Shown here one piece after another: positions 5,761-20,000 of a stretch of 20,000 bases of DNA. The DNA lies in IMG/VR virus record IMGVR_UViG_2806310790_000002. The stretch is one strand, 5' to 3'. The position numbers were made by a program, and so were the translations under genes. The notes under the pieces were generated by a model. That model made no database searches. It was not told the origin of the DNA and saw nothing but the letters and a program-made list of their open reading frames with translations. The number at the start of each line of letters is the position of its first letter. Positions within the stretch are counted from its first letter, which is position 1. Source of the stretch: an uncultured virus (IMG/VR IMGVR_UViG_2806310790_000002). Lineage: Duplodnaviria; Heunggongvirae; Uroviricota; Caudoviricetes.

Positions 5761-6039
5761 ATGAGAATAAAGGAACTTTTAAAAGAGAAACATTACACAC
5801 AACAAGAACTGGCAGATAAAATGAATGTAAGCCTATCTGCTGTTAGACAAATGGTTGCAGCAGAATCATTGACAACTGCTACACTTGAAAAGATCGCTAC
5901 CGCCCTCAACGTTCCCATGTGGCAGCTATTCGCGTCCCCGGAAGAGGTGCAGCTTCCCTCAAACGCCCATTCTATCAAATGCCCACACTGCGGGAACGAG
6001 TTCCCGGTTAGTGTGAATGTTGAACTTAAAACCAAATAG
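5761..6039 (+). CDS. XRE-family HTH regulator with C-terminal CPHCG zinc knuckle
   Basis: RIKELLKEK..TQQELADKMNVS.SAV...TLEKIATALNV..WQLF; IKCPHCG. Confidence 0.92.
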   Translation: MRIKELLKEKHYTQQELADKMNVSLSAVRQMVAAESLTTATLEKIATALNVPMWQLFASPEEVQLPSNAHSIKCPHCGNEFPVSVNVELKTK

Positions 6040-6040
6040 T

Positions 6041-6703
6041 ATGAAAGAGACCCTAATCGTATTAATGTTTATTGTACCACTCTTTGCAAATGCGCAAGAA
6101 TATGGCAATTTGGCATCCAAAGATTCACTGAATATAAACACGGATTCTTTACAGTCTGTTGTTGATTCTATTATGGAAGTCAAATTAAAAAAAGAGCAAA
6201 TAACAACTATTGGTGGAATACCTTTTGGAATTTCCAGAGAAAAAGCCCTACCTGTATTAAGAAACAAATATGGGACAGAAGATTATCTTTCCGACAATAA
6301 ACACATAGTCTTTAAAAGCATAAAATATGCAGGTGTAGATTTTAACTCCGTATATTTCCTTTTTCAATCAGACGGTATTAATAGCTATTTTAATGCTTGC
6401 ATATTTATCCTAAATGCAAAAACGAAAAAAGAAGCCATTGACAAACAAGAAGAGATGAGAAATCTTTTATCTAAAAAATACGATTTATCTTCTTTTAAGG
6501 ATGACCATGGATTCGACTTATACGTTGGAGGTGTATCCCCATTATGGAACGGTCGTTGGAAATCGTTTTTAGAAGGGGGATATGAAGGGGCTGTCCATAT
6601 AGACATTATAAATTATGACGAAGAATTAGCAAAAAATGCTGGATTTGAATATTCTGTCCGTATAATTTATGGCCCTTTCAATTATGTAAAAGAGGAATTT
6701 TGA
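6041..6703 (+). CDS. Exported protein of unknown function (moron)
   Basis: Start MKETLIVLMFIVPLFANA|QE gives a signal peptide with ANA-Q cleavage; begins 1 bp after the XRE stop. Confidence 0.8.
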   Translation: MKETLIVLMFIVPLFANAQEYGNLASKDSLNINTDSLQSVVDSIMEVKLKKEQITTIGGIPFGISREKALPVLRNKYGTEDYLSDNKHIVFKSIKYAGVDFNSVYFLFQSDGINSYFNACIFILNAKTKKEAIDKQEEMRNLLSKKYDLSSFKDDHGFDLYVGGVSPLWNGRWKSFLEGGYEGAVHIDIINYDEELAKNAGFEYSVRIIYGPFNYVKEEF

Positions 6704-6854: not shown

Positions 6855-7514
6855 TTAGATGGGAAGAACATTAGGATATTTCCGGTAATACAATTTAGTC
6901 AATGTGGATTTAAGGCTATTATAGTCTTTGATAAAACCTAAATCTATCCATTGGGCTATCTGTAATTCCAACTCATACAATTCACGAATTTTAGCTTCAT
7001 CGCCAATTTTATTACGCATTTCTGATTCATGCTTACCGTAGACTATGATGTTTAGAGACTTGGCCAAGTCCTTGACTTTTTGTTTGAATAGGTCATCTGG
7101 CAAAATAGAACTGACCGCTTTACACATGGATGGGTATGCATCACCAGCAAGATTGCGGAATTTTATCATTTCATCATAGACAAATTTGAGAACATCATAT
7201 TTAAAAGACGGATTTATCCACATTGCAAAATCAATAAAAAGTAGTGGATGCATCCAGGTACCCGCATTATCCCCCTTATTTGCCCTTGATTTATGATAGG
7301 GGTAATTACCCCTATCATAATTTTCTCTTTCCATTATAGTGTAAATGAACTCTTTAGTGGAAGCTAAGCCGAAGTAGTCATTAACTTCCTTCTTCATACC
7401 TTTCAATTGATTCCACTGTTTCAATAAATTTGTAGCATTGAAAAACGCATCTTTAGTTCTCTGAATTACTTTAAAATCACCCATTGGGCGAATCATAATT
7501 TGGTTCGTTTTCAT
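6855..7514 (-). CDS. KilA-N domain protein
   Basis: Start MKTNQIMIR at 7514; QRTKD.FFNAT.LLKQW and GTWMHPLLFIDFAMWINP.F motifs. Confidence 0.9.
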   Translation of the reverse strand: MKTNQIMIRPMGDFKVIQRTKDAFFNATNLLKQWNQLKGMKKEVNDYFGLASTKEFIYTIMERENYDRGNYPYHKSRANKGDNAGTWMHPLLFIDFAMWINPSFKYDVLKFVYDEMIKFRNLAGDAYPSMCKAVSSILPDDLFKQKVKDLAKSLNIIVYGKHESEMRNKIGDEAKIRELYELELQIAQWIDLGFIKDYNSLKSTLTKLYYRKYPNVLPI

Positions 7515-7532
7515 AATAAAGTCTTTTCGTTC

Positions 7533-7623
7533 GAGGACGTACCGCACTTCTTCATGCGGAGATAAAAAGGCGAAAGCCATGCAGGGGGTTATGACCTACA
7601 CAGCTTTCTATATCTTAATCCTC
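7533..7623 (-). ncRNA. Structured leader / C4- or CI-like regulatory RNA upstream of KilA-N
   Basis: Closing stem, long bulged hairpin and minor hairpin; all five non-Watson-Crick oppositions are G-U on the minus strand. Confidence 0.55.
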
Positions 7624-7827: not shown

Positions 7828-8355
7828 ATGACAAAATTTGAACAACAAAGAATTATAGAAATAGTGCTTTATATCCTTAATAAAACTGGGGGTATGGACT
7901 ATTATCATCTGTTCAAGATATTATATTTTGCCAATCAACGAAGTTTGGTTGACTGGGGACAACTGATGATAGCGGATAAATTTTGTGCTCTTCCCCATGG
8001 ACCAGTACCAACAATCTTGTATAGTACAATACAGGGGCAAAAAAGTGTTCTTTCAAAAATGAAAGACGATGTTTATGTCGTAGATTACTATCTATTATCC
8101 AAACGTGAACCGGATATGGATTATCTTTCACAATATGATAAAGATACGTTAGATTTATGCATCTCCAAATACGGGAAAATGAGTTTTAAGGAGTTGGAAA
8201 GAACTTCTCATACAACTTGTTGGCAAAAAGCGAGAGACAAAAAGGGGAATCATGTTATTGATCCGGGGGATATTGCCCTTGACGGAGGAGCTAATGATGA
8301 ACTTGTAAAATATATTAATGATTCAATAGCATTTGATGAAACCTTCGGAAATTAA
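7828..8355 (+). CDS. Panacea (DUF4065/SocA-like) antitoxin
   Basis: KILYFA, FCALPHGPVP and LERTSH..CW motifs characteristic of the Panacea domain. Confidence 0.9.
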   Translation: MTKFEQQRIIEIVLYILNKTGGMDYYHLFKILYFANQRSLVDWGQLMIADKFCALPHGPVPTILYSTIQGQKSVLSKMKDDVYVVDYYLLSKREPDMDYLSQYDKDTLDLCISKYGKMSFKELERTSHTTCWQKARDKKGNHVIDPGDIALDGGANDELVKYINDSIAFDETFGN

Positions 8356-10844: not shown

Positions 10845-11456
10845 TTAATCATCTCCATTTGTATCTGATTTATTGTTAGGGATTACTTTTGTTTTACCTC
10901 CAGTTTTATCAACGATAACCGGTTTGCCACCTACTGTAGTTTCGGTACATTGCCCTTCAGGGAACTTATCAATAAAGCGAACTACTTCTTTATCTTCTGT
11001 TATATTACTTCCCTCTTTGGCTTCAAAAGGGAATACGTCTACAATAGGGGTTTCAGCTACCATGCCGATCTGATAATCTGCCATGGTTCCTTTCATGCCC
11101 TCATCCAGCTTTTTCACAGCATCACGCAAGTCGGCAGCTTGTACCAATACTTGAGTGGAAGTCTTTTTCTCAGCACCGCTTTTTTCATCGAGGGTGATAA
11201 ATACTAATTTGCATTTAAACCAACGGTCTGCTGATTCCTCTTCACTGGGAAATAGCTCGCTGTAATTGGCACGTTTAATGTCTGATACTGTAAATTCTCC
11301 TGTTATAAATGGAGTCATCTCCTCGATAATACGTGCTTCTGCTTCTGTAAAGCTGAGTGCATCTACCAGATAAGGTTCTGTTATTTTTTTCTGCATTCCG
11401 TTTTCCATTACTTTCTCGTAACGGATTTTACATTCAAACCATGTGTGCATTCCCAT
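10845..11456 (-). CDS. DUF4494-domain protein
   Basis: WFECKIRYEK.MENG..KK..E.YLVDALSFTEAEARIIEEM signature of the Bacteroidetes family. Confidence 0.85.
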   Translation of the reverse strand: MGMHTWFECKIRYEKVMENGMQKKITEPYLVDALSFTEAEARIIEEMTPFITGEFTVSDIKRANYSELFPSEEESADRWFKCKLVFITLDEKSGAEKKTSTQVLVQAADLRDAVKKLDEGMKGTMADYQIGMVAETPIVDVFPFEAKEGSNITEDKEVVRFIDKFPEGQCTETTVGGKPVIVDKTGGKTKVIPNNKSDTNGDD

Positions 11457-11458
11457 AA

Positions 11459-11833
11459 TTATTTATCTTTTTTAGGTTCGTCAATATATTTATCCGCAAA
11501 ACGGTCAAGCACCTTGATATACTTGTCCGGAAGCTTCTTTGCCGTATCATTGACCCTGATATAGTCAATCGTACCACCGATACCATAGATATAAAGCAGC
11601 TCCTTGGTCGTCGGAATAAAAATACTCGCCATCACTGCTATTACACCACAGACAACAAAGCGCTTTAACCATTTGAAGAATGTGAGTGCGTCGTTCTTAT
11701 CCTCGATTACATCATCTCCTGATATCAACAAAACAAACAGCATGACTAAGACAATTACCAAAGCTACAATCCATACGAGTGTCAATACAGTGGACAGGTT
11801 ACCAATTACGGTCATCCAATAAATTCCATTCAT
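11459..11833 (-). CDS. Phage membrane protein (2 TM)
   Basis: Probable start MNGIYW at 11833; two hydrophobic helices and a FIPTTKE motif. Confidence 0.8.
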   Translation of the reverse strand: MNGIYWMTVIGNLSTVLTLVWIVALVIVLVMLFVLLISGDDVIEDKNDALTFFKWLKRFVVCGVIAVMASIFIPTTKELLYIYGIGGTIDYIRVNDTAKKLPDKYIKVLDRFADKYIDEPKKDK

Positions 11834-11943
11834 AATGTAAAAAATTAAATTATTAATACTTTCGTCATATATATTTCTTTCTATTCTATTTTGTACCAAT
11901 CCTTGAATTTTCTTCAAGGATTGGCAAAGATTTATTGCTAAAT

Positions 11944-12816
11944 TTATCTCCCAAACACTTCTTTAAACTTACGATCTAAAGCATCCAATATTCGCATCCT
12001 CACAGCAGGATCAGCGGAAAGATTATCAATTGAGTAAATCCTTGAAATCAATTTATCACGAGAACCACAGAAACAACCACATGTATAAAACGGAGCAACA
12101 TTGGGATAATTATGTTTGTACCATAAGTGATTTGTACCCTTGATAGCCACATAGGTCTCTGTGATTATAAACTCCTCATTGGATGATGTATACCCCGGAG
12201 TGTTGGGATTACCCGCGGCACTACTGCGGACAGCCCAGTCGCTATCTTTCGACAACTCGACAAGGGTGTCAGCCGGAGTGTTGGGATTACCCGCGGCACT
12301 ACTGCGGACAGACAGCCAGTCGCTATCTTTCGACAACTCGACAAGGGTGTCAGCCGGAGTGTTGGGATTACCCGCGGCACTTCTGCGGACAGCCCAGTGG
12401 CTATCTTTCGACAACTCGACAAGGGTGTCAGCCGGAGTGTTGGGATTACCCGCGGCACTACTGCGGACATCACAGTGGCTATCTTTCGACAACTCGACAA
12501 GGGTGTCAGCCGGAGTGTTGGGATTACCCGCGGCACTACTGCGGACATCACAGTGGCTATCTTTCGACAACTCGACAAGGGTGTCAGCCGGAGTGTTGGG
12601 ATTACCCGCGGCATTTCTGCGGACATCACAGTCGCTATCTTTCGACAACTCGACAAGGGTGTCAGCCGGAGTGTTGGGATTACCCGCGGCATTTCTGCGG
12701 ACATCACAGTCGCTATCTTTCGACAACTCGACAAGGGTGTCAGCCGGAGTGTTGGGATTACCCGCGGCACTTCTGCGGACAGCCCAGTGGCTATTTAAAA
12801 TTTCATTCTTTTCCAT
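11944..12816 (-). CDS. HEAT-like/LRV repeat protein with C-terminal CGCFxG domain
   Basis: About 7.7 copies of 26-aa DSxxxVRxxAAGNPNTPADTLVELSK followed by a unique domain containing YTCGCFCGS. Confidence 0.9.
   Translation of the reverse strand: MEKNEILNSHWAVRRSAAGNPNTPADTLVELSKDSDCDVRRNAAGNPNTPADTLVELSKDSDCDVRRNAAGNPNTPADTLVELSKDSHCDVRSSAAGNPNTPADTLVELSKDSHCDVRSSAAGNPNTPADTLVELSKDSHWAVRRSAAGNPNTPADTLVELSKDSDWLSVRSSAAGNPNTPADTLVELSKDSDWAVRSSAAGNPNTPGYTSSNEEFIITETYVAIKGTNHLWYKHNYPNVAPFYTCGCFCGSRDKLISRIYSIDNLSADPAVRMRILDALDRKFKEVFGR
12195..12794. repeat. 78-bp coding tandem repeat, about 7.7 copies (one unit 81 bp)
   Basis: Period measured directly (AAGGGTGTC at 12421 and 12499); unit is 44/78 GC, well above the AT-rich flanks. 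Confidence 0.97.
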
Positions 12817-12967
12817 TGTATATTTTATTTTTTAATTTTTTACTTAGTTTTTTAGATTGTCTTGCTTTATCAAATTCGCAAGGCTTCTTACAATATTTAT
12901 CAATTAGCTCTGCACTCTTATCAAGGAGCCGAATAATAGTCTGTACATCTGTTTTGCATACTTCCAT
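12803..12967 (-). CDS. Small basic hypothetical protein (54 aa)
   Basis: Probable start MEVCKTD at 12967 within ORF 12803..13132. Confidence 0.65.
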   Translation of the reverse strand: MEVCKTDVQTIIRLLDKSAELIDKYCKKPCEFDKARQSKKLSKKLKNKIYNGKE

Positions 12968-13238
12968 TGTCTTTAAGTATATGTTTGCGAATCCAAGAGA
13001 AACCACCATATATCCATTTATTTTGTTTACACAATAATATCCTATCAGCTTTGGGATAGAATATAACCCACCCAAATCCTTTTTTAGAAACAATGAATTC
13101 GAATCCAAAATCATTTCGTTGAATAACGTCATATCCTAAAGATTTGATAGCGGGAAGGATTGTGTTTACAAACTGACTATAACGTTCTTCTCTTCTCTGT
13201 TTTACAAATTGTCCGTATTCTTTTCCAGCTTCACTCAT
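12921..13238 (-). CDS. Hypothetical phage protein
   Basis: 105 aa; ATGA overlap with the DUF1351 gene stop. Confidence 0.7.
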   Translation of the reverse strand: MSEAGKEYGQFVKQRREERYSQFVNTILPAIKSLGYDVIQRNDFGFEFIVSKKGFGWVIFYPKADRILLCKQNKWIYGGFSWIRKHILKDNGSMQNRCTDYYSAP

Positions 13239-14152
13239 GCTAATTCTATTTTGTCAAAATCAATACCTTTTGCATTCATAAAATCACCAAGAGCAATGAT
13301 GTTTTCACGAGTAGTGGTAACCTTGAATGCTCTCGTTAATAATTCAGGTTGTTGCGATATGGATTGACTAAAAGGTACTTGTTCGTCAGCTTTTTGATTT
13401 GCTATTGCAAATGGATTGATCGGACGTGATTTGACTTGCTCTACTTCAACAGCTTTACGAGCTTCTTCCGCTTGTTGCTTTTCTTGTTCCGCTTTAATCT
13501 TAGCTTCTTCTGCTACCTTAGCTCGTTCGCGTTGTTCTTTCAGGCGGTTTGCGTATTGAATAGTAGAAGTGATATTAAGCGTGTCCATATAATAAGTGCG
13601 GAGAACATCATAGTCTTCACCAAAACCTTTCAGCGTAGATAGCTCGTTTTCAACCTTAGCAAATATGGCATCAATATCCGAACAAACAGACTTCATGCTC
13701 GCGGATTTGTTGAGCCACTCTGATTTAAATACCTTGTTGAAGTCTACAAGGTTTGCGTTCATTCCATCAAAGTAAGTCTTGATAGTAGATTTCTTCCTGT
13801 CCTTGTATTGCTGCTCGTTTTGTTTGACCACTGTGTCAATCTTGGCAGAACATTCACCTATGAGCTTTACCGTTTCGTTTACTACCTCCTTGAATTCTCC
13901 AAAAGGTTTCATAAACTCCTTCTCTATTTCAAGACGTTTGGAGTTAAGATCTTTAGCAGCTTTGTTGAGAGAGGCTTTATCTCTCTTTGCCTGATCGATA
14001 TTGTCATCCGTATAATTGGATATATCATACTTTGGCAAATTCGCCATTACAATATCTCGGATTTGCTTTGCGTTGGTAGTAAGACTACCTAACGTCTTTT
14101 CACTTACAACCAGTTCTAGGTCTCTTTCTTGGATTGCTAATTGTGTATTCAT
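13235..14152 (-). CDS. DUF1351-family phage protein
   Basis: AKRDKASLNK.AKDL..KRLEIEKEFMKPF.EF coiled coil; usual position next to recombination genes. Confidence 0.8.
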   Translation of the reverse strand: MNTQLAIQERDLELVVSEKTLGSLTTNAKQIRDIVMANLPKYDISNYTDDNIDQAKRDKASLNKAAKDLNSKRLEIEKEFMKPFGEFKEVVNETVKLIGECSAKIDTVVKQNEQQYKDRKKSTIKTYFDGMNANLVDFNKVFKSEWLNKSASMKSVCSDIDAIFAKVENELSTLKGFGEDYDVLRTYYMDTLNITSTIQYANRLKEQRERAKVAEEAKIKAEQEKQQAEEARKAVEVEQVKSRPINPFAIANQKADEQVPFSQSISQQPELLTRAFKVTTTRENIIALGDFMNAKGIDFDKIELA

Positions 14153-14156
14153 TGCT

Positions 14157-14624
14157 CTACATTTTTAAGTTTCTACTAAATTTGTCAGCTATGCGTTCTA
14201 TGGTATCTGCATTTTCTTCGGAAAGCCATTCTTTAGCGACATTCCAAGCTATACTTTTAGATGCTTTGAAATTGTCAATGCGTGTAGAATGATGCGACAA
14301 ACGCCCTTCGGTAGGCTTCAATCCTCTGTCGTGAAGTTCGCATAAGCCATTGTGAAAGAACGAACAATAATCATCGCCCGATGCAATTTGGATCATAGGA
14401 ACTGGGAAATTAATAACTCCCATTATCATTCCGGCTCCCCAAAGAGTGGGGAGTAACCGGTCTGAATAACCTGCATCTATTAATTTTTCAATATCCTGCG
14501 GAGTTCCTAAACATGGAGTATGGCATTGCATTTTACATAATGAACATTTACATTCACATGGCTTTCTACCTGTCTTTCGTATAATTCGCTGGAGTTGAGT
14601 CTCTTTTATTAACAGGTCATTCAT
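14157..14624 (-). CDS. Cys-rich metal-binding protein (YkgJ-like)
   Basis: CECKCSLCKMQCHTPC...CSFF.NGLCELH..GLKP.EG. Confidence 0.7.
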   Translation of the reverse strand: MNDLLIKETQLQRIIRKTGRKPCECKCSLCKMQCHTPCLGTPQDIEKLIDAGYSDRLLPTLWGAGMIMGVINFPVPMIQIASGDDYCSFFHNGLCELHDRGLKPTEGRLSHHSTRIDNFKASKSIAWNVAKEWLSEENADTIERIADKFSRNLKM

Positions 14625-15295
14625 TATTCTATATCAGCTATTTGGTTAATAATGTCGTCCGCCATTCTAATACGATTCTCCATTTCTGCAAAGACCCTTT
14701 CATCAGGTAGTATGTGTACAATATGAATAGGATCTATTTGAAAAGGATTATAAACTACAAAATCAGTACCTTGAGCTCCGGTGCACATCATGTGAGCACA
14801 ACATTGGTAGAAGTATTTAGGATTCATTTCTAACAATGAGTCATTGTCATGAACATCAGATTTGTATCTCATAAATTTGCCTTGATCAAGACATTTGATT
14901 TCCAAACATAATTTGATTTGGCTATCTTCATCATAAAAGAAACCATCAGGACTACTTGCGAAATTAGGAATAGTAGGATGTTTACATGAACCGACTTCTA
15001 TAATATGCAAGCCAGTTTTTTTAGCATAAAGATTACGAGCATATTCCTCTTGCTCATTACCCCACTGCATTGCTTTGGAGTTTACATTTACTTGTTGCAA
15101 GTATATCTCGAATGTATAATCATCATTTATAATATCGGGATCCATAAATCTTTCACCTGCAATTTGATAAATATAAGTTTTGGCGGCATCTGAAAAGCAG
15201 CCATTACGACCACTCTTCATTAATACTCCGCATTCACTTCCTGTGATACATCCTAATCTTTTTCTGTACCATTCAATTGTATGTTGTGCTTCCAT
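14624..15295 (-). CDS. YqaJ/lambda-exonuclease family nuclease
   Basis: EWYRKRLG.ITGS, MQWG.EQE..AR, SSPDG, LEIKC, YFYQ motifs. Confidence 0.93.
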   Translation of the reverse strand: MEAQHTIEWYRKRLGCITGSECGVLMKSGRNGCFSDAAKTYIYQIAGERFMDPDIINDDYTFEIYLQQVNVNSKAMQWGNEQEEYARNLYAKKTGLHIIEVGSCKHPTIPNFASSPDGFFYDEDSQIKLCLEIKCLDQGKFMRYKSDVHDNDSLLEMNPKYFYQCCAHMMCTGAQGTDFVVYNPFQIDPIHIVHILPDERVFAEMENRIRMADDIINQIADIE

Positions 15296-16062
15296 TATAA
15301 TAATGTTTTTTGAGCCGGTTTGTCATTCGTGTTATTTTGAGGCTGATTTACTGGTTGCTCCGTTTTTGGTTGTTCTTCTACTCCTGCATTCTTAAGAGCA
15401 ATTTCCGCAAGTTTGTTGGCTTTAGATTCTTTGTCTGTGACATCTTCATATTCAGCAAACTTAACTTCTTGTTCTTCTTGCGTGTACATTGCACCAAGTT
15501 GGGCTGGAAAAGCTTCACGTAATGCTTGGACTTTAGCAATCTTGGAAATCATGGTGGATTTTTTTTCATTCCATATAGATTGCTTTTTGTCGTATTCGGC
15601 AAGATTGACTTTCGCTATAATCGGAAATCTGCGGTCAGACCGGTAAACTTCGCACCACCCACCTACAAGTATATCAGTCTTTTCATTATAAAAACAGCCT
15701 TCCACCTCTACAATTTTGTTGTCTCTAATAATAATGATACCCGCCTTGAAACCTTCATATTTTTCACTAGCGTCAGCACGTTTAAAAAATGCTTCCTTGC
15801 TAACAATCATCTGTGCCGGCTGTTGTCCGAATTTAACAAGAAATGCTTCGTTCAGGAATGGATTAAGCTGGTTAAATTTACAAATACTAATAAACTGAAC
15901 AATATCTTGATCGGATACCTGTCCGTTACCTTTAGTTAGATAGTTACGTACAATATCAAAAGATAATGCCACGTCGTTACCTGCAACTTGATAAATAGTT
16001 TTGCCTTTACCAAATATTGCCAATGCATCATTTTCCTGTTTTGTTAATTTGTTTTCCTCCAT
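15295..16062 (-). CDS. bet: Phage single-strand annealing recombinase (Bet/RecT family)
   Basis: F...CK...LNPF..EA.LVKF, GGWCEVYR.DR, W......MI.K.A.VQALREAFP; coupled to the exonuclease gene. Confidence 0.92.
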   Translation of the reverse strand: MEENKLTKQENDALAIFGKGKTIYQVAGNDVALSFDIVRNYLTKGNGQVSDQDIVQFISICKFNQLNPFLNEAFLVKFGQQPAQMIVSKEAFFKRADASEKYEGFKAGIIIIRDNKIVEVEGCFYNEKTDILVGGWCEVYRSDRRFPIIAKVNLAEYDKKQSIWNEKKSTMISKIAKVQALREAFPAQLGAMYTQEEQEVKFAEYEDVTDKESKANKLAEIALKNAGVEEQPKTEQPVNQPQNNTNDKPAQKTLL

Positions 16063-17767: not shown

Positions 17768-18031
17768 TTAATCATTTTGTTTAGACCATAATTCTTCGGG
17801 AGGTATCCCTGTTATTTCGGAAAGTATTGAAACATGAGAGGGCTTATTAGGTTTCATACCATAAATAACCCAGTTTCTAACAGCAGTGAAAGATACTCCA
17901 GTCCGTTTCATTATCTCGTTGATAAATTCTGTTTTGGGATGAGTAGATTCCGGTAGATTTTGATAATAACCTTTTAAGGTCATTTTATGACCTTCATTAG
18001 GAAAAACTCTTGTTTTTAATTCATCTTTCAT
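17768..18031 (-). CDS. Cro-like HTH protein
   Basis: TGVSFTAVRNW..YG.KP...LSEITGIP.EELW; divergent from the repressor; alternative start at 17983. Confidence 0.85.
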   Translation of the reverse strand: MKDELKTRVFPNEGHKMTLKGYYQNLPESTHPKTEFINEIMKRTGVSFTAVRNWVIYGMKPNKPSHVSILSEITGIPPEELWSKQND

Positions 18032-18127
18032 TATCTTTGCAGTGTTATATAATTAATAGTAATGCAAATATATCCATTTTATGGATAAAAAGGATGTTTA
18101 TACGCTTAAATATCCTTAAAATGGATA
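18032..18127. promoter_or_regulatory. Lysis/lysogeny switch: face-to-face promoters and two operators
   Basis: Rightward TATCTTTG at 18032-18039; leftward TATATTTG at 18072-18065; operators TATCCATTTTATGGATA (18071-18087) and TATCCTTAAAATGGATA (18111-18127). Confidence 0.7.
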
Positions 18128-18141
18128 ATAATTTTATTCGT

Positions 18142-18678
18142 ATGGATAAAGAGCAAGAAAGCAGGCTGAAGCAGTTCAGGATTTACATGAATATGACGCA
18201 ACAGCAAATGGCTGATTTACTGAATGTTGGTCAGAATACTTATTCAAGAATAGAAAATGGTATCACAGCTTTCAAAGATGTATACAAGAAAATAATAGAG
18301 GATAAGTATCACTTGACAACAGGATGGCTATCTGGTGCCGATGTACCTATGTTAAAAAAATACGATGCTGTGGCCGGTATTATAGGGAAAAGTATTCCTG
18401 AAAGTAACAGAGACCAATTAAAAGAGCAGATATTGGAAGAACTTGTAACACAAAGGCTAGAGGGTAAAAATGAATCTATTTCTATGAGTCGAGAGGTGTT
18501 TGAGCAAATATCAAGATTGACAGAAACGGTGTTGTCTCAACAAAAAACAATTGAATCTATGCAAGAGCAAAATAGAAAATTTCTTGTCCAGCAGAGGGAG
18601 GATGTAAGATGTGCTCATGTAAGTGGGTCGGATATTTCAACAAACGACATAAAGAACCAAAATATAAATAAGGAATGA
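18142..18678 (+). CDS. CI-like XRE repressor lacking an S24 peptidase domain
   Basis: RLKQFR....MTQQQMADLLNVGQNTYSRIENG...WL.G..PM; C-terminal coiled coil (LTETVLSQQKTIE); start at 18142 or 18121. Confidence 0.88.
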   Translation: MDKEQESRLKQFRIYMNMTQQQMADLLNVGQNTYSRIENGITAFKDVYKKIIEDKYHLTTGWLSGADVPMLKKYDAVAGIIGKSIPESNRDQLKEQILEELVTQRLEGKNESISMSREVFEQISRLTETVLSQQKTIESMQEQNRKFLVQQREDVRCAHVSGSDISTNDIKNQNINKE

Positions 18679-19124: not shown

Positions 19125-20000
19125 ATGAAACGAAATCAAAACAGGAAATTATTCAAAAAGAAATCACGTTCTAATTATAAATTAGGATGTATTATCGCTA
19201 TTGTTATACTTATACCTGTTCTTTATGGTGTCTATTTGTATTGCCAACAGTTTAATACCCAAACGCAAAAAAGCAACGAACCACAAGTTAATACATCTTC
19301 TCAAATTCCTTCCGGCAGAAATTTGGAGATCCCTGTCTCATTAGCTCCCAAACAAGAGCAAATCATTCGACATACAGGATATACCGTTTCTTATAATAAA
19401 GATTTAAAACTTCCGAATTGGGTATCCTATGAACTTACCCGACAAGAAACCAAAGGAAAAGAAAAAAGAAGTAACCGTTTCATTGCCGATCCATTAGCAA
19501 TAGGGACTATTGCAACAAATGCGGATTATACACGTTCAGGATATGATAAAGGACACATGGCGCCGGCTGCAGATATGAAATGGAGTCCGAAAGCGATGAA
19601 AGAGTCGTTCTATTTTAGCAATATGTGCCCACAACATCCGCAATTAAATAGAAGAGGCTGGAAAAATCTGGAAGAAAAGATCCGGGACTGGGCTATTGCA
19701 GACAGCGCTGTCATCGTTATTTGCGGACCTATCATAGAAAGAGAATCGAAAACAATCGGAAAAAATAAAGTTGCAGTACCCCAACAGTTTTTCAAAGTAG
19801 TCCTCTCTCCCTTTGTCAAACCCATGCGAGCCATTGGTTTCTTATTCAATAATGAACAAGCAACAGATCCTCTTCACTCATATGTAGTTACCATAGACAG
19901 TATCGAACGACTTACACACATGGATTTCTTTGCAACTCTACCTGATGAAATTGAAAACAAAATAGAAGCCGAAGCCAATTATCACCAGTGGCCGAATTAA
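19125..20000 (+). CDS. DNA/RNA non-specific endonuclease (NucA/EndA His-Me finger), membrane-anchored; host gene
   Basis: YTVSYN...PNWVSYEL, GYDKGHMAPAAD, SNMCPQ.PQLNR..W..LE, VP..FFKV; N-terminal TM helix. Confidence 0.95.
   Translation: MKRNQNRKLFKKKSRSNYKLGCIIAIVILIPVLYGVYLYCQQFNTQTQKSNEPQVNTSSQIPSGRNLEIPVSLAPKQEQIIRHTGYTVSYNKDLKLPNWVSYELTRQETKGKEKRSNRFIADPLAIGTIATNADYTRSGYDKGHMAPAADMKWSPKAMKESFYFSNMCPQHPQLNRRGWKNLEEKIRDWAIADSAVIVICGPIIERESKTIGKNKVAVPQQFFKVVLSPFVKPMRAIGFLFNNEQATDPLHSYVVTIDSIERLTHMDFFATLPDEIENKIEAEANYHQWPN

Follow-up and report, generated by a model that had tools for sequence, protein, structure and literature searches.

The LRV gene and its tandem array

We analyzed a 20,000-nucleotide (nt) stretch of DNA from an uncultured virus of the Caudoviricetes (IMG/VR record IMGVR_UViG_2806310790_000002), called the window throughout, and focused on one minus-strand gene in it (11944..12816), here called the LRV gene. 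Its product, P0001, has 290 amino acids (aa): eight LRV repeats between a short cap (9 aa) at the N-terminus and a C-terminal domain of 84 aa. Tandem Repeats Finder, applied to the whole window, returned a single tandem array, which lies within this gene (12195..12794, minus strand; period 78, 7.7 copies, 96% matches), and the codon table resolves it into 78-bp units that each open with a variable cassette. The cassette occupies the initial seven codons of every unit (eight in unit 7), and its codons 4 and 5, encoding VR, are constant; the 21-nt hypervariable cassette of unit 2 (12691..12711, minus strand) is an example. From the N-terminus, with all units on the minus strand, the cassettes read HWAVRRS in unit 1 (12789-12712), DCDVRRN in units 2 (12711-12634) and 3 (12633-12556), HCDVRSS in units 4 (12555-12478) and 5 (12477-12400), HWAVRRS again in unit 6 (12399-12322), DWLSVRSS in unit 7 (12321-12241, 81 nt), and DWAVRSS in unit 8, represented by its first 15 codons (12240-12196). 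Exactly these cassettes had been listed in an earlier interpretation of the window made from its letters alone (the sequence-only reading).

Only five nucleotide sites vary among the eight units, one in each of cassette codons 1, 2, 3, 6, and 7 (CAC/GAC, TGG/TGT, GCT/GAT, AGA/AGT, and AGT/AAT, respectively), and unit 7 carries in addition an indel (GCT to CTG TCT, net +3 nt). We denote the corresponding residues x1, x2, x3, x6, and x7, and the 21 remaining columns the scaffold. No residue is encoded by two codons within any column, and the scaffold shows 0 differences across 28 unit pairs; the earlier claim that all change lies in five codons around VR and is never synonymous therefore holds across the units of the window. 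All four combinations of x1 with x2/x3 are present (HW, DC, HC, and DW), as had been claimed for D/H against W-type/CD, and the same is true of x1 with x6 and of x2 with x6, so that at least two recombination or recurrent-mutation events are needed within 21 nt. The placement of the five sites inside the 21 of 78 nt named beforehand has P = 0.0014, or at most 0.08 if any 21-nt stretch is allowed; from the window alone, the clustering is moderately improbable and only suggestive, and it is the family data below that make it decisive. The 27-aa DWLS unit is unique, being 1 of 213 anchor spacings in the family arrays. Four long open frames also cross the array (12161-12835, 12183-13037, and 12397-12798 on the plus strand and 12165-12770 on the minus strand); they are by-products of the repeat rather than genes, because the 78-nt unit has no stop codon in those frames.

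The repeats form a helix-pair solenoid

P0001 belongs to the LRV family and is a helix-pair solenoid. The Pfam LRV profile (PF01816) matches it in seven stretches with 165.1 bits (cut-off 21.6, E = 4.5e-50), and the LRV_2, HEAT_2, and HEAT profiles likewise score above their own cut-offs. The AlphaFold2 model, built from 38 input sequences (mean pLDDT 87.8, pTM 0.74), predicts eight regular helix pairs followed by a small domain with five strands and two helices. The modeled helices alternate between 9 and 7 residues (e.g., H11-19 and H25-31); helix 1 of each repeat is predicted to run from x2 to the Gly of AAG, and helix 2 to correspond to the L..L segment. Among the best Foldseek matches in the PDB are the alphaRep proteins 4zv6_A (E = 1.2e-7, TMq 0.56) and 6bzx_A (TMq 0.57), the LRV protein 1lrv (E = 4.6e-7, TMq 0.46, root-mean-square deviation 5.1 over 200 columns, 28% identity), and the PP2A A subunit. 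Profile and structure matches thus agree with the original assignment of P0001 to the HEAT-like repeat proteins. The repeat part is acidic, with an isoelectric point (pI) of 4.71.

The alphaRep match bears on where the cassette residues point. According to PMC3754942, alphaRep variable positions 18, 19, 22, 23, and 26 sit on the concave binding face and make contacts in solved complexes. Columns 2, 3, 6, 7, and 10 of the phage repeat are spaced i, i+1, i+4, i+5, and i+8, a spacing that describes one helix face and equals that of the five alphaRep positions as given there. This match favors the proposal that the positions around VR form a binding surface, and we infer from it that the cassette residues would form a continuous, solvent-exposed recognition stripe.

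Nonsynonymous variation is concentrated in the cassette codons

Encoded relatives were found on 136 IMG/VR contigs, the best 80 of which were kept, and at no fewer than six loci in reference genomes of Parabacteroides, Bacteroides, and Paraprevotella among the matches listed. We examined 90 loci and the window; 76 had an open reading frame (ORF) with both the repeat and the C-terminal motif, and these gave 70 distinct arrays with 283 units. The 30 complete ORFs have 2-15 repeats, half of them (15/30) only 2-4, and homologue lengths in the protein search step by 26 residues (159, 185, and 211), which matches gain and loss of units. The copy-number change postulated from the window is therefore a property of the family.

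We compared units within arrays (784 unit pairs from the 70 distinct arrays). Nonsynonymous differences were found in 0.50, 0.50, 0.64, 0.56, and 0.32 of pairs at columns 1, 2, 3, 6, and 7, respectively, and synonymous differences at these columns in at most 0.006 of pairs; all remaining columns had at most 0.21 nonsynonymous and 0.15 synonymous. By the Nei-Gojobori method, the proportions of nonsynonymous (pN) and synonymous (pS) differences were 0.270 and 0.058 in the five cassette codons (pN/pS = 4.7) and 0.029 and 0.075 in the scaffold (pN/pS = 0.39), and cassette pN exceeded scaffold pS in 35 of the 41 arrays with at least three units. Homologues thus show the nonsynonymous excess in the same five codons as the window. 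Scaffolds have evolved in concert: their nucleotide identity is 96% inside arrays vs. 73% between arrays, and 9 of the 41 arrays, the window's included, have perfectly identical scaffolds.

The cassette repertoire is large: the 283 units hold 117 distinct cassettes, of which 72 are confined to a single array. Alternative codons are mostly one nucleotide apart (GAC/AAC/CAC/TAC, TGG/TGT, GAT/GGT/GCT/GTT, CGT/AGT/TGT/TAT, and AGC/AAC). Position x2 is nearly binary (W in 133 and C in 113 of the 283 units) and strongly coupled to x3 (mutual information 0.84, shuffle maximum 0.26), the most frequent pairs being C-D (77), W-G (37), W-A (30), and W-S (28). The choice of Trp or Cys at x2, one nucleotide apart, dictates x3, with Cys accompanied by Asp, Ile, or Tyr and Trp by Gly, Ala, or Ser; this coupling suggests two structural "states" per repeat. 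The two cassette halves are only weakly associated (x3-x6, for example, 0.33 vs. a shuffle maximum of 0.25) and reassort almost freely over the 10-nt spacer. Neighboring cassettes are identical in 31 of 157 cases, against a permuted mean of 19.1 (maximum 31, 2000 permutations), and such runs point to unit duplication. The notion of a shuffled binding face is accordingly sustained only in part: units are duplicated, but recurrent point substitution under selection explains the reassortment within cassettes no less well than unit exchange would.

Cassettes also change faster than their surroundings. In 11 phage pairs whose 1.5-1.8 kb of downstream DNA is ~99-100% identical, with units aligned from the C-terminal end, 101 of 555 nt differ in cassette codons (18.2%), 40 of 1968 nt in the scaffold (2.0%), and 87 of 17,449 nt in the downstream DNA (0.5%). 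Two loci with 12 units each (L033 and L034) differ at 38 codons, all nonsynonymously; cassette columns account for 30 of these, column 10 for 6, and other columns for 2. Some arrays have a sixth variable site in column 10, the Gly that follows Ala-Ala, which is equivalent in place to alphaRep position 26; several L033 and L034 units have Trp or Glu there.

The window compared with a complete genome

One complete, one-contig genome of 4.57 Mb (G001) contains 100% of the sampled words of the window. Outside the array, the two sequences have 0 mismatches in 12,190 + 7,200 nt (19,390 nt). Inside it, the order of cassette types is the same and the run lengths differ: the window has HWA-RS, DCD-RN twice, HCD-SS twice, HWA-RS, DWLS-SS, and DWA-SS (eight units), and G001 has HWA-RS, DCD-RN three times, HCD-SS once, HWA-RS, and DWA-SS three times (nine units). 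DWLS occurs only in the window, and the two arrays are at least three events apart. Either the array is the fastest-changing spot of the prophage or one of the two assemblies is wrong there, and the second option is a live one.

Short-read assemblies fare poorly at this locus. In Logan contigs from four isolate runs (four studies), the sequence stops at 12224 and starts again at 12765; none of the pieces listed bridges the array. For the bin with the DWLS cassette (12311-12357), cover was absent in X2 and X6 and limited to the edge in X12 and X16, which is not evidence that the unit is missing. Unitig depths hinted at copy numbers unlike those of both assemblies, but depth is not copy number and we did not use them. 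Among 71 viral loci (L011-L090, IMG/VR), 42 reach a contig end inside the array, which makes it a systematic assembly break-point in gut viromes. Cassette identities, contained within 21 nt, are trustworthy; unit order and number from short-read assemblies are not.

We regard it as possible, although not the likelier case, that the eight-unit order of the window, with its 27-aa DWLS unit, is an assembly or consensus product; the hypervariability of the family would stand regardless. Runs of identical 78-bp units exceed short-read length and the isolate contigs break at the array, G001 with its identical flanks has nine units, other run lengths, and no DWLS unit, and DWLS is the sole 27-aa spacing in 213. 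On the other side, DWLS preserves the reading frame, G001 shares the window's four other cassette types, and the identical long arrays of L024 and L026, recovered independently, indicate that reproducible assembly is possible. The sequence-only reading had named an assembly chimera as the outcome that would overturn it: the family-wide variation stands, and the exact order and count of units in the window may still be chimeric.

The constant C-terminal domain

The repeats are followed by a conserved basic domain of 84 aa (11947..12198, minus strand; pI 8.6, model pLDDT 83.1), predicted to fold into five beta-strands and then two helices. The family alignment shows conserved motifs GT..WYKHN and PFYTCGCFCGSR, with invariant columns GT, W-Y, P-F-Y, G-C-F, G-S-R, and R-I-L. 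It had no Pfam match at E <= 10, a single and nonsignificant PDB hit by sequence profile (E = 0.58), no Foldseek match in the PDB at E <= 0.001, and scores of at most 0.78 against the ESM Atlas. In an exhaustive structural scan (VIA wide), no match exceeded Z 5.6; polo-box domains reached Z 5.0-5.2, a level that the tool assigns to common arrangements. Neither Pfam, Foldseek, nor VIA revealed a recognizable enzymatic motif or fold in it. A Cys/His zinc site, suggested by invariant H and C residues in close homologues, was rejected, the third Cys and the His being absent from distant members.

The profile of this domain recovered 22 representative proteins from 1.84 billion, almost all with LRV repeats before the domain. 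Its most distant relatives (P0134, P0135, and P0139) have ordinary, mutually diverged LRV repeats. One protein (P0124, 220 aa) carries the domain behind an unrelated N-terminal part without LRV repeats; it may be a genuine fusion, or its gene call may be frameshifted or chimeric. The domain would be a separate module, constant in sequence, that serves as an anchor, an oligomerization unit, or an effector-docking unit.

Distribution

The LRV-array gene is sporadic. An evenly drawn order-level sample of 401 genomes gave two matches, one of them weak, and a family-level sample of 401 gave four, of which those in G001 and G714 are solid and two are weak with stop codons. With the C-terminal domain as query, tblastn returned nothing from 50,697 phage genomes on deposit, and megablast of 11000-14200 against phage records found only the DUF4494 neighbor, in Bacteroides phage BKO1-TP3. 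The exact 57-nt scaffold had 0 matches in metagenome_contigs and viral_contigs, and the exact window and G001 proteins are absent from the protein cluster collection.

The early operon around the LRV gene

PHROGs and Pfam matches identify the window as a temperate-phage early region. Its minus-strand operon encodes, in order, a LuxR-type regulator, RecT (15295-16062; Pfam RecT, E = 2.2e-41), a YqaJ-type exonuclease (14624-15295; Pfam YqaJ, E = 1.3e-21), a DUF1351 protein, a 109-aa ORF (12803..13132) without a PHROG or Pfam family, the LRV protein, a small membrane protein, a DUF4494 protein, a VRR-NUC nuclease, and a DNA methyltransferase. The operon runs opposite to a plus-strand gene for a repressor-like helix-turn-helix protein (18010-18678; PHROGs/Pfam). 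With RecT and the exonuclease upstream in the same operon, gene content agrees with the placement of the LRV gene in an early operon, so that it would be expressed early. The stop of the 109-aa ORF directly upstream overlaps the LRV start by 14 nt, which suggests that the two are translationally coupled. No terminator-like site was found beside the LRV gene on the minus strand. A sigma-70 promoter scan gave 36 hits, not above shuffled sequences (29.6 +/- 4.2), and was not used, the consensus being ill-suited to Bacteroidales. P0001 matched no family of PADLOC-DB (2023 library) at E <= 0.01, and the 109-aa ORF gave a weak match to PDC-S63 (E = 0.0015); this weighs neither for nor against the host-defense or takeover targets that the sequence-only reading had suggested.

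The LRV stop codon is separated from the probable start of the following gene by ~110 nt, and this gap holds a perfect 12-bp inverted repeat, CCAATCCTTGAA / TTCAAGGATTGG, with a 5-nt loop (11896..11924). It is not a classical intrinsic terminator, since no T-run follows it on either strand, and it may be an RNA processing or attenuation element. The downstream gene (11459-11833, minus strand) probably starts at ATG 11833 rather than at the listed TTG 11917, because the long form matches its PHROG only from residue 32 onward; the product (P0143, 124 aa; phrog_3878) opens with a long hydrophobic stretch and is thus a small membrane protein.

The sequence-only reading had put forward the co-transcribed recombination pair (RecT and YqaJ here) as the candidate driver of diversification, and the family data do not support this. 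Of 27 loci with at least 4 kb of upstream sequence, only 3 have a RecT homologue in the flanks and 9 have YqaJ. Four of six other annotated loci have an ERF-family annealing protein nearby instead, and others encode PD-(D/E)XK nucleases, methyltransferases, a DnaB helicase, or an integrase. The neighborhood is mosaic, and its constant feature is an early recombination and replication module rather than RecT. Given this weak co-occurrence, and annealing proteins being ordinary in temperate-phage early regions, we rejected the linkage to RecT and exonuclease as a driver; the association shows nothing causal.

A proposed diversified binder and its alternatives

We interpret the LRV protein as a hypervariable cytoplasmic alpha-solenoid binder that is made early in the lytic program and diversified by concerted evolution and selection, and we assign this interpretation a probability of roughly 0.55. 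The V, A, and A residues and two Leu of the second helix would pack the core, and x1 (a helix cap), x2, x3, x6, x7, and sometimes column 10 would line one solvent face like the randomized positions of alphaRep. Whole 78-bp units would be gained, lost, and converted in frame by slippage or unequal recombination between identical 57-nt scaffolds, thereby homogenizing the scaffold and changing array length. Recurrent single-nucleotide substitutions, with some very short-tract exchange, would supply novelty in the five cassette codons, where strong positive selection would retain it, and purifying selection would retain the scaffold. The selection would probably be exerted by a variable target protein, either of the host or of competing phages, as in an arms race. 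A protein is the more likely target than a nucleic acid because the repeats are acidic (pI 4.7), half of the complete ORFs have only 2-4 repeats, the cassette repertoire is larger than a code would need, and the nearest structures are protein binders.

Several points weigh against this interpretation. Exposure of the cassette residues is argued from helical periodicity, the conservation pattern, and the analogy with alphaRep. Array order and count come from assemblies, and some differences between phages in either may be assembly products. Long arrays dominate the within-array pair counts, although per-array means agree, and two of the five columns offer little synonymous opportunity (Trp has one codon). 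The comparison of 11 phage pairs assumes positional homology from the C-terminal end, so that unit shuffling inflates the cassette figure, and two loci enter it twice, which leaves the pairs partly dependent. Stable arrays are seen as well: one and the same nine-unit array recurs in two metagenomes (L024 and L026), and L001 and L025 are identical, as are L015 and L016.

Familiar gene-conversion and retroelement systems were rejected as accounts of the array. A diversity-generating retroelement (DGR) was rejected because there is no reverse transcriptase, no template copy, and no adenine-specific spectrum. None of the 31 window ORFs encodes a reverse transcriptase, the only RVT_1 match in G001 lies 625 kb away, and five related viral records, of which four have a completeness of 90% or more, gave no match either; the sequence-only reading, which had set the locus apart from DGRs, was right in this. 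Variable sites in the window show C/G, G/T, C/A, A/T, and G/A differences, and no scaffold adenine varies. Searched in six frames with P0001, G001 matches at this locus only; it shows neither a second repeat copy that could serve as a DGR template nor silent donor cassettes, on which ground conversion of the pilin or vls type was rejected as well.

The array might instead be a contingency locus that changes within one lysogen or phage population, through the annealing protein and exonuclease or through replication slippage, so that each burst would hold a library of binders, a non-retroelement counterpart of a DGR. The window and G001, with arrays at least three events apart between flawless flanks, speak for it, yet assembly error explains the difference equally well; the contig breaks in 42 of 71 viral loci fit heterogeneity and fit the repeat alone just as well. 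Identical neighboring units are in excess, and the window, like four of six other annotated loci, has RecT or ERF as an annealing protein no more than a few kb away, but such proteins are common in temperate-phage early regions and RecT homologues occur at only 3 of 27 loci. The shared nine-unit array of L024 and L026 speaks for stability, and exchange of units creates no new cassettes, yet 72 of 117 are confined to one array. We consider such diversification in situ unlikely. The broader idea, a retroelement-independent binder-diversification system in temperate Bacteroidales phages in which cassettes and unit number turn over within populations, possibly helped by an annealing/exonuclease module, seems to us doubtful, if slightly less so.

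Two further functions have been weighed against the binder. In immune receptors, diversifying selection on repeat sensors is the norm, and the LRV array could be a prophage sensor that recognizes a protein of superinfecting phages, with the C-terminal domain triggering exclusion or abortive infection; the diversifying selection would in that case be of the immune-receptor kind rather than that of a counter-defense. The architecture, a variable repeat array joined to a small constant domain, and the sporadic occurrence of the gene (solid in G001 and G714, with two weak, broken matches, among 401 family genomes) speak for this. P0001 has no PADLOC match, however, its C-terminal domain has no recognizable enzymatic motif or fold, and the gene sits inside a co-directional early lytic operon, overlapping the upstream ORF, with no adjacent terminator-like site and on the strand opposite to the repressor-like gene, all of which makes a sensor improbable. 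We give still less weight to a protein that would read a linear polymer module by module, each repeat taking one residue or base as in TALE, PUF, or designed armadillo proteins, with cassettes as code words and array length setting target length. Near-identical repeat DNA with specificity-like residues at fixed positions recalls TAL effectors, x2 is almost binary and tightly coupled to x3, and D, N, H, R, S, and W, all present in cassettes, are typical of residues that read bases or backbones. But 117 cassettes in 283 units far exceed a small code, the 2-4 repeats of 15/30 complete ORFs would not suffice to specify a nucleic-acid site, the array has an acidic pI, and the closest structures are protein binders; a polymer reader is very unlikely.

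Comparison with known repeat and hypervariation systems

The closest counterpart of the proposed binder is alphaRep, a set of HEAT-like libraries (PDB 4zv6, 6bzx, 3ltm, and 4jw2). Both are helix-pair solenoids with conserved V-R and A-A core residues and a varying number of internal repeats, and in both the variable positions are two adjacent pairs plus one more on one helix (for alphaRep, as described in PMC3754942). AlphaRep is man-made, with 31-aa repeats and an in vitro library, whereas the phage repeats have 26 aa and owe their diversity to phage populations; the phage protein further has an extra variable cap position, x1, and a natural C-terminal domain, and identity in structural alignments is 23-26%. 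Within the LRV family (PF01816; Azotobacter vinelandii LRV protein, 1lrv), the phage protein matches profile and fold but differs in repeats that are near-identical in DNA, in their hypervariable cassettes, and in a family-specific C-terminal domain.

TAL effector repeats have almost identical DNA, differ at fixed specificity positions, evolve by gain, loss, and recombination of repeats, and assemble poorly from short reads. The phage array shares this mode of repeat evolution and the assembly trouble. Its fold and repeat length are different, it is acidic, and it has five to six variable residues and 117 cassettes in 283 units, vs. two variable residues and a small code in TAL effectors. DGRs of gut phages likewise are phage-borne, occur in Bacteroidales phages, and cause site-restricted nonsynonymous hypervariation in a ligand-binding protein, ligand binding being a prediction for the phage array. 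A DGR has one C-terminal variable region, whereas the variable sites of LRV arrays recur in each tandem unit; the searches showed no nearby reverse transcriptase in the window, G001, or the five related viral records and no second repeat copy in G001, and substitution in the window is not adenine-specific.

Targeted protein hypervariation in phages is known almost only from DGRs, and in the full-text literature searched, which lacks most subscription journals, comparable LRV or HEAT-like arrays of phages are not described. The LRV-array family reaches a DGR-comparable outcome without a reverse transcriptase: nonsynonymous change is restricted to a few predicted surface positions, ~36 times denser than in flanking DNA, on a uniform scaffold. 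Hundreds of naturally selected cassette combinations are available on a very short 26-aa repeat, and the match in spacing with alphaRep suggests that nature and protein design converged on the same binding face. If diversification independent of retroelements were true, a single prophage lineage would continually sample specificities against host-defense or rival-phage proteins, the arrays would amount to an alphaRep library made by nature, and phages would possess, next to DGRs, another means of programmed protein hypervariation. The LRV gene is an uncharacterized accessory gene of the early operon, probably at an interface of phage-host or phage-phage conflict in gut Bacteroidales, and offers a concrete locus for gauging the pace of repeat-array change in a lysogen. 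It is also a warning for annotation: short-read assemblies break or miscount LRV arrays, and array sequences in databases need caution.

Other features of the window

A gene with a Panacea/SocA antitoxin domain (7828-8355, plus strand) runs against the direction of the operon, beside a KilA-N domain gene (6855-7580, minus strand), and there is an unannotated ORF of 228 aa (6017-6703, plus strand); this region may be a toxin-antitoxin or accessory island inside the prophage. A DNA/RNA non-specific endonuclease gene (19125-20000, plus strand; Endonuclease_NS, E = 6.2e-59) adjoins the genes on the repressor side and runs past the end of the window.

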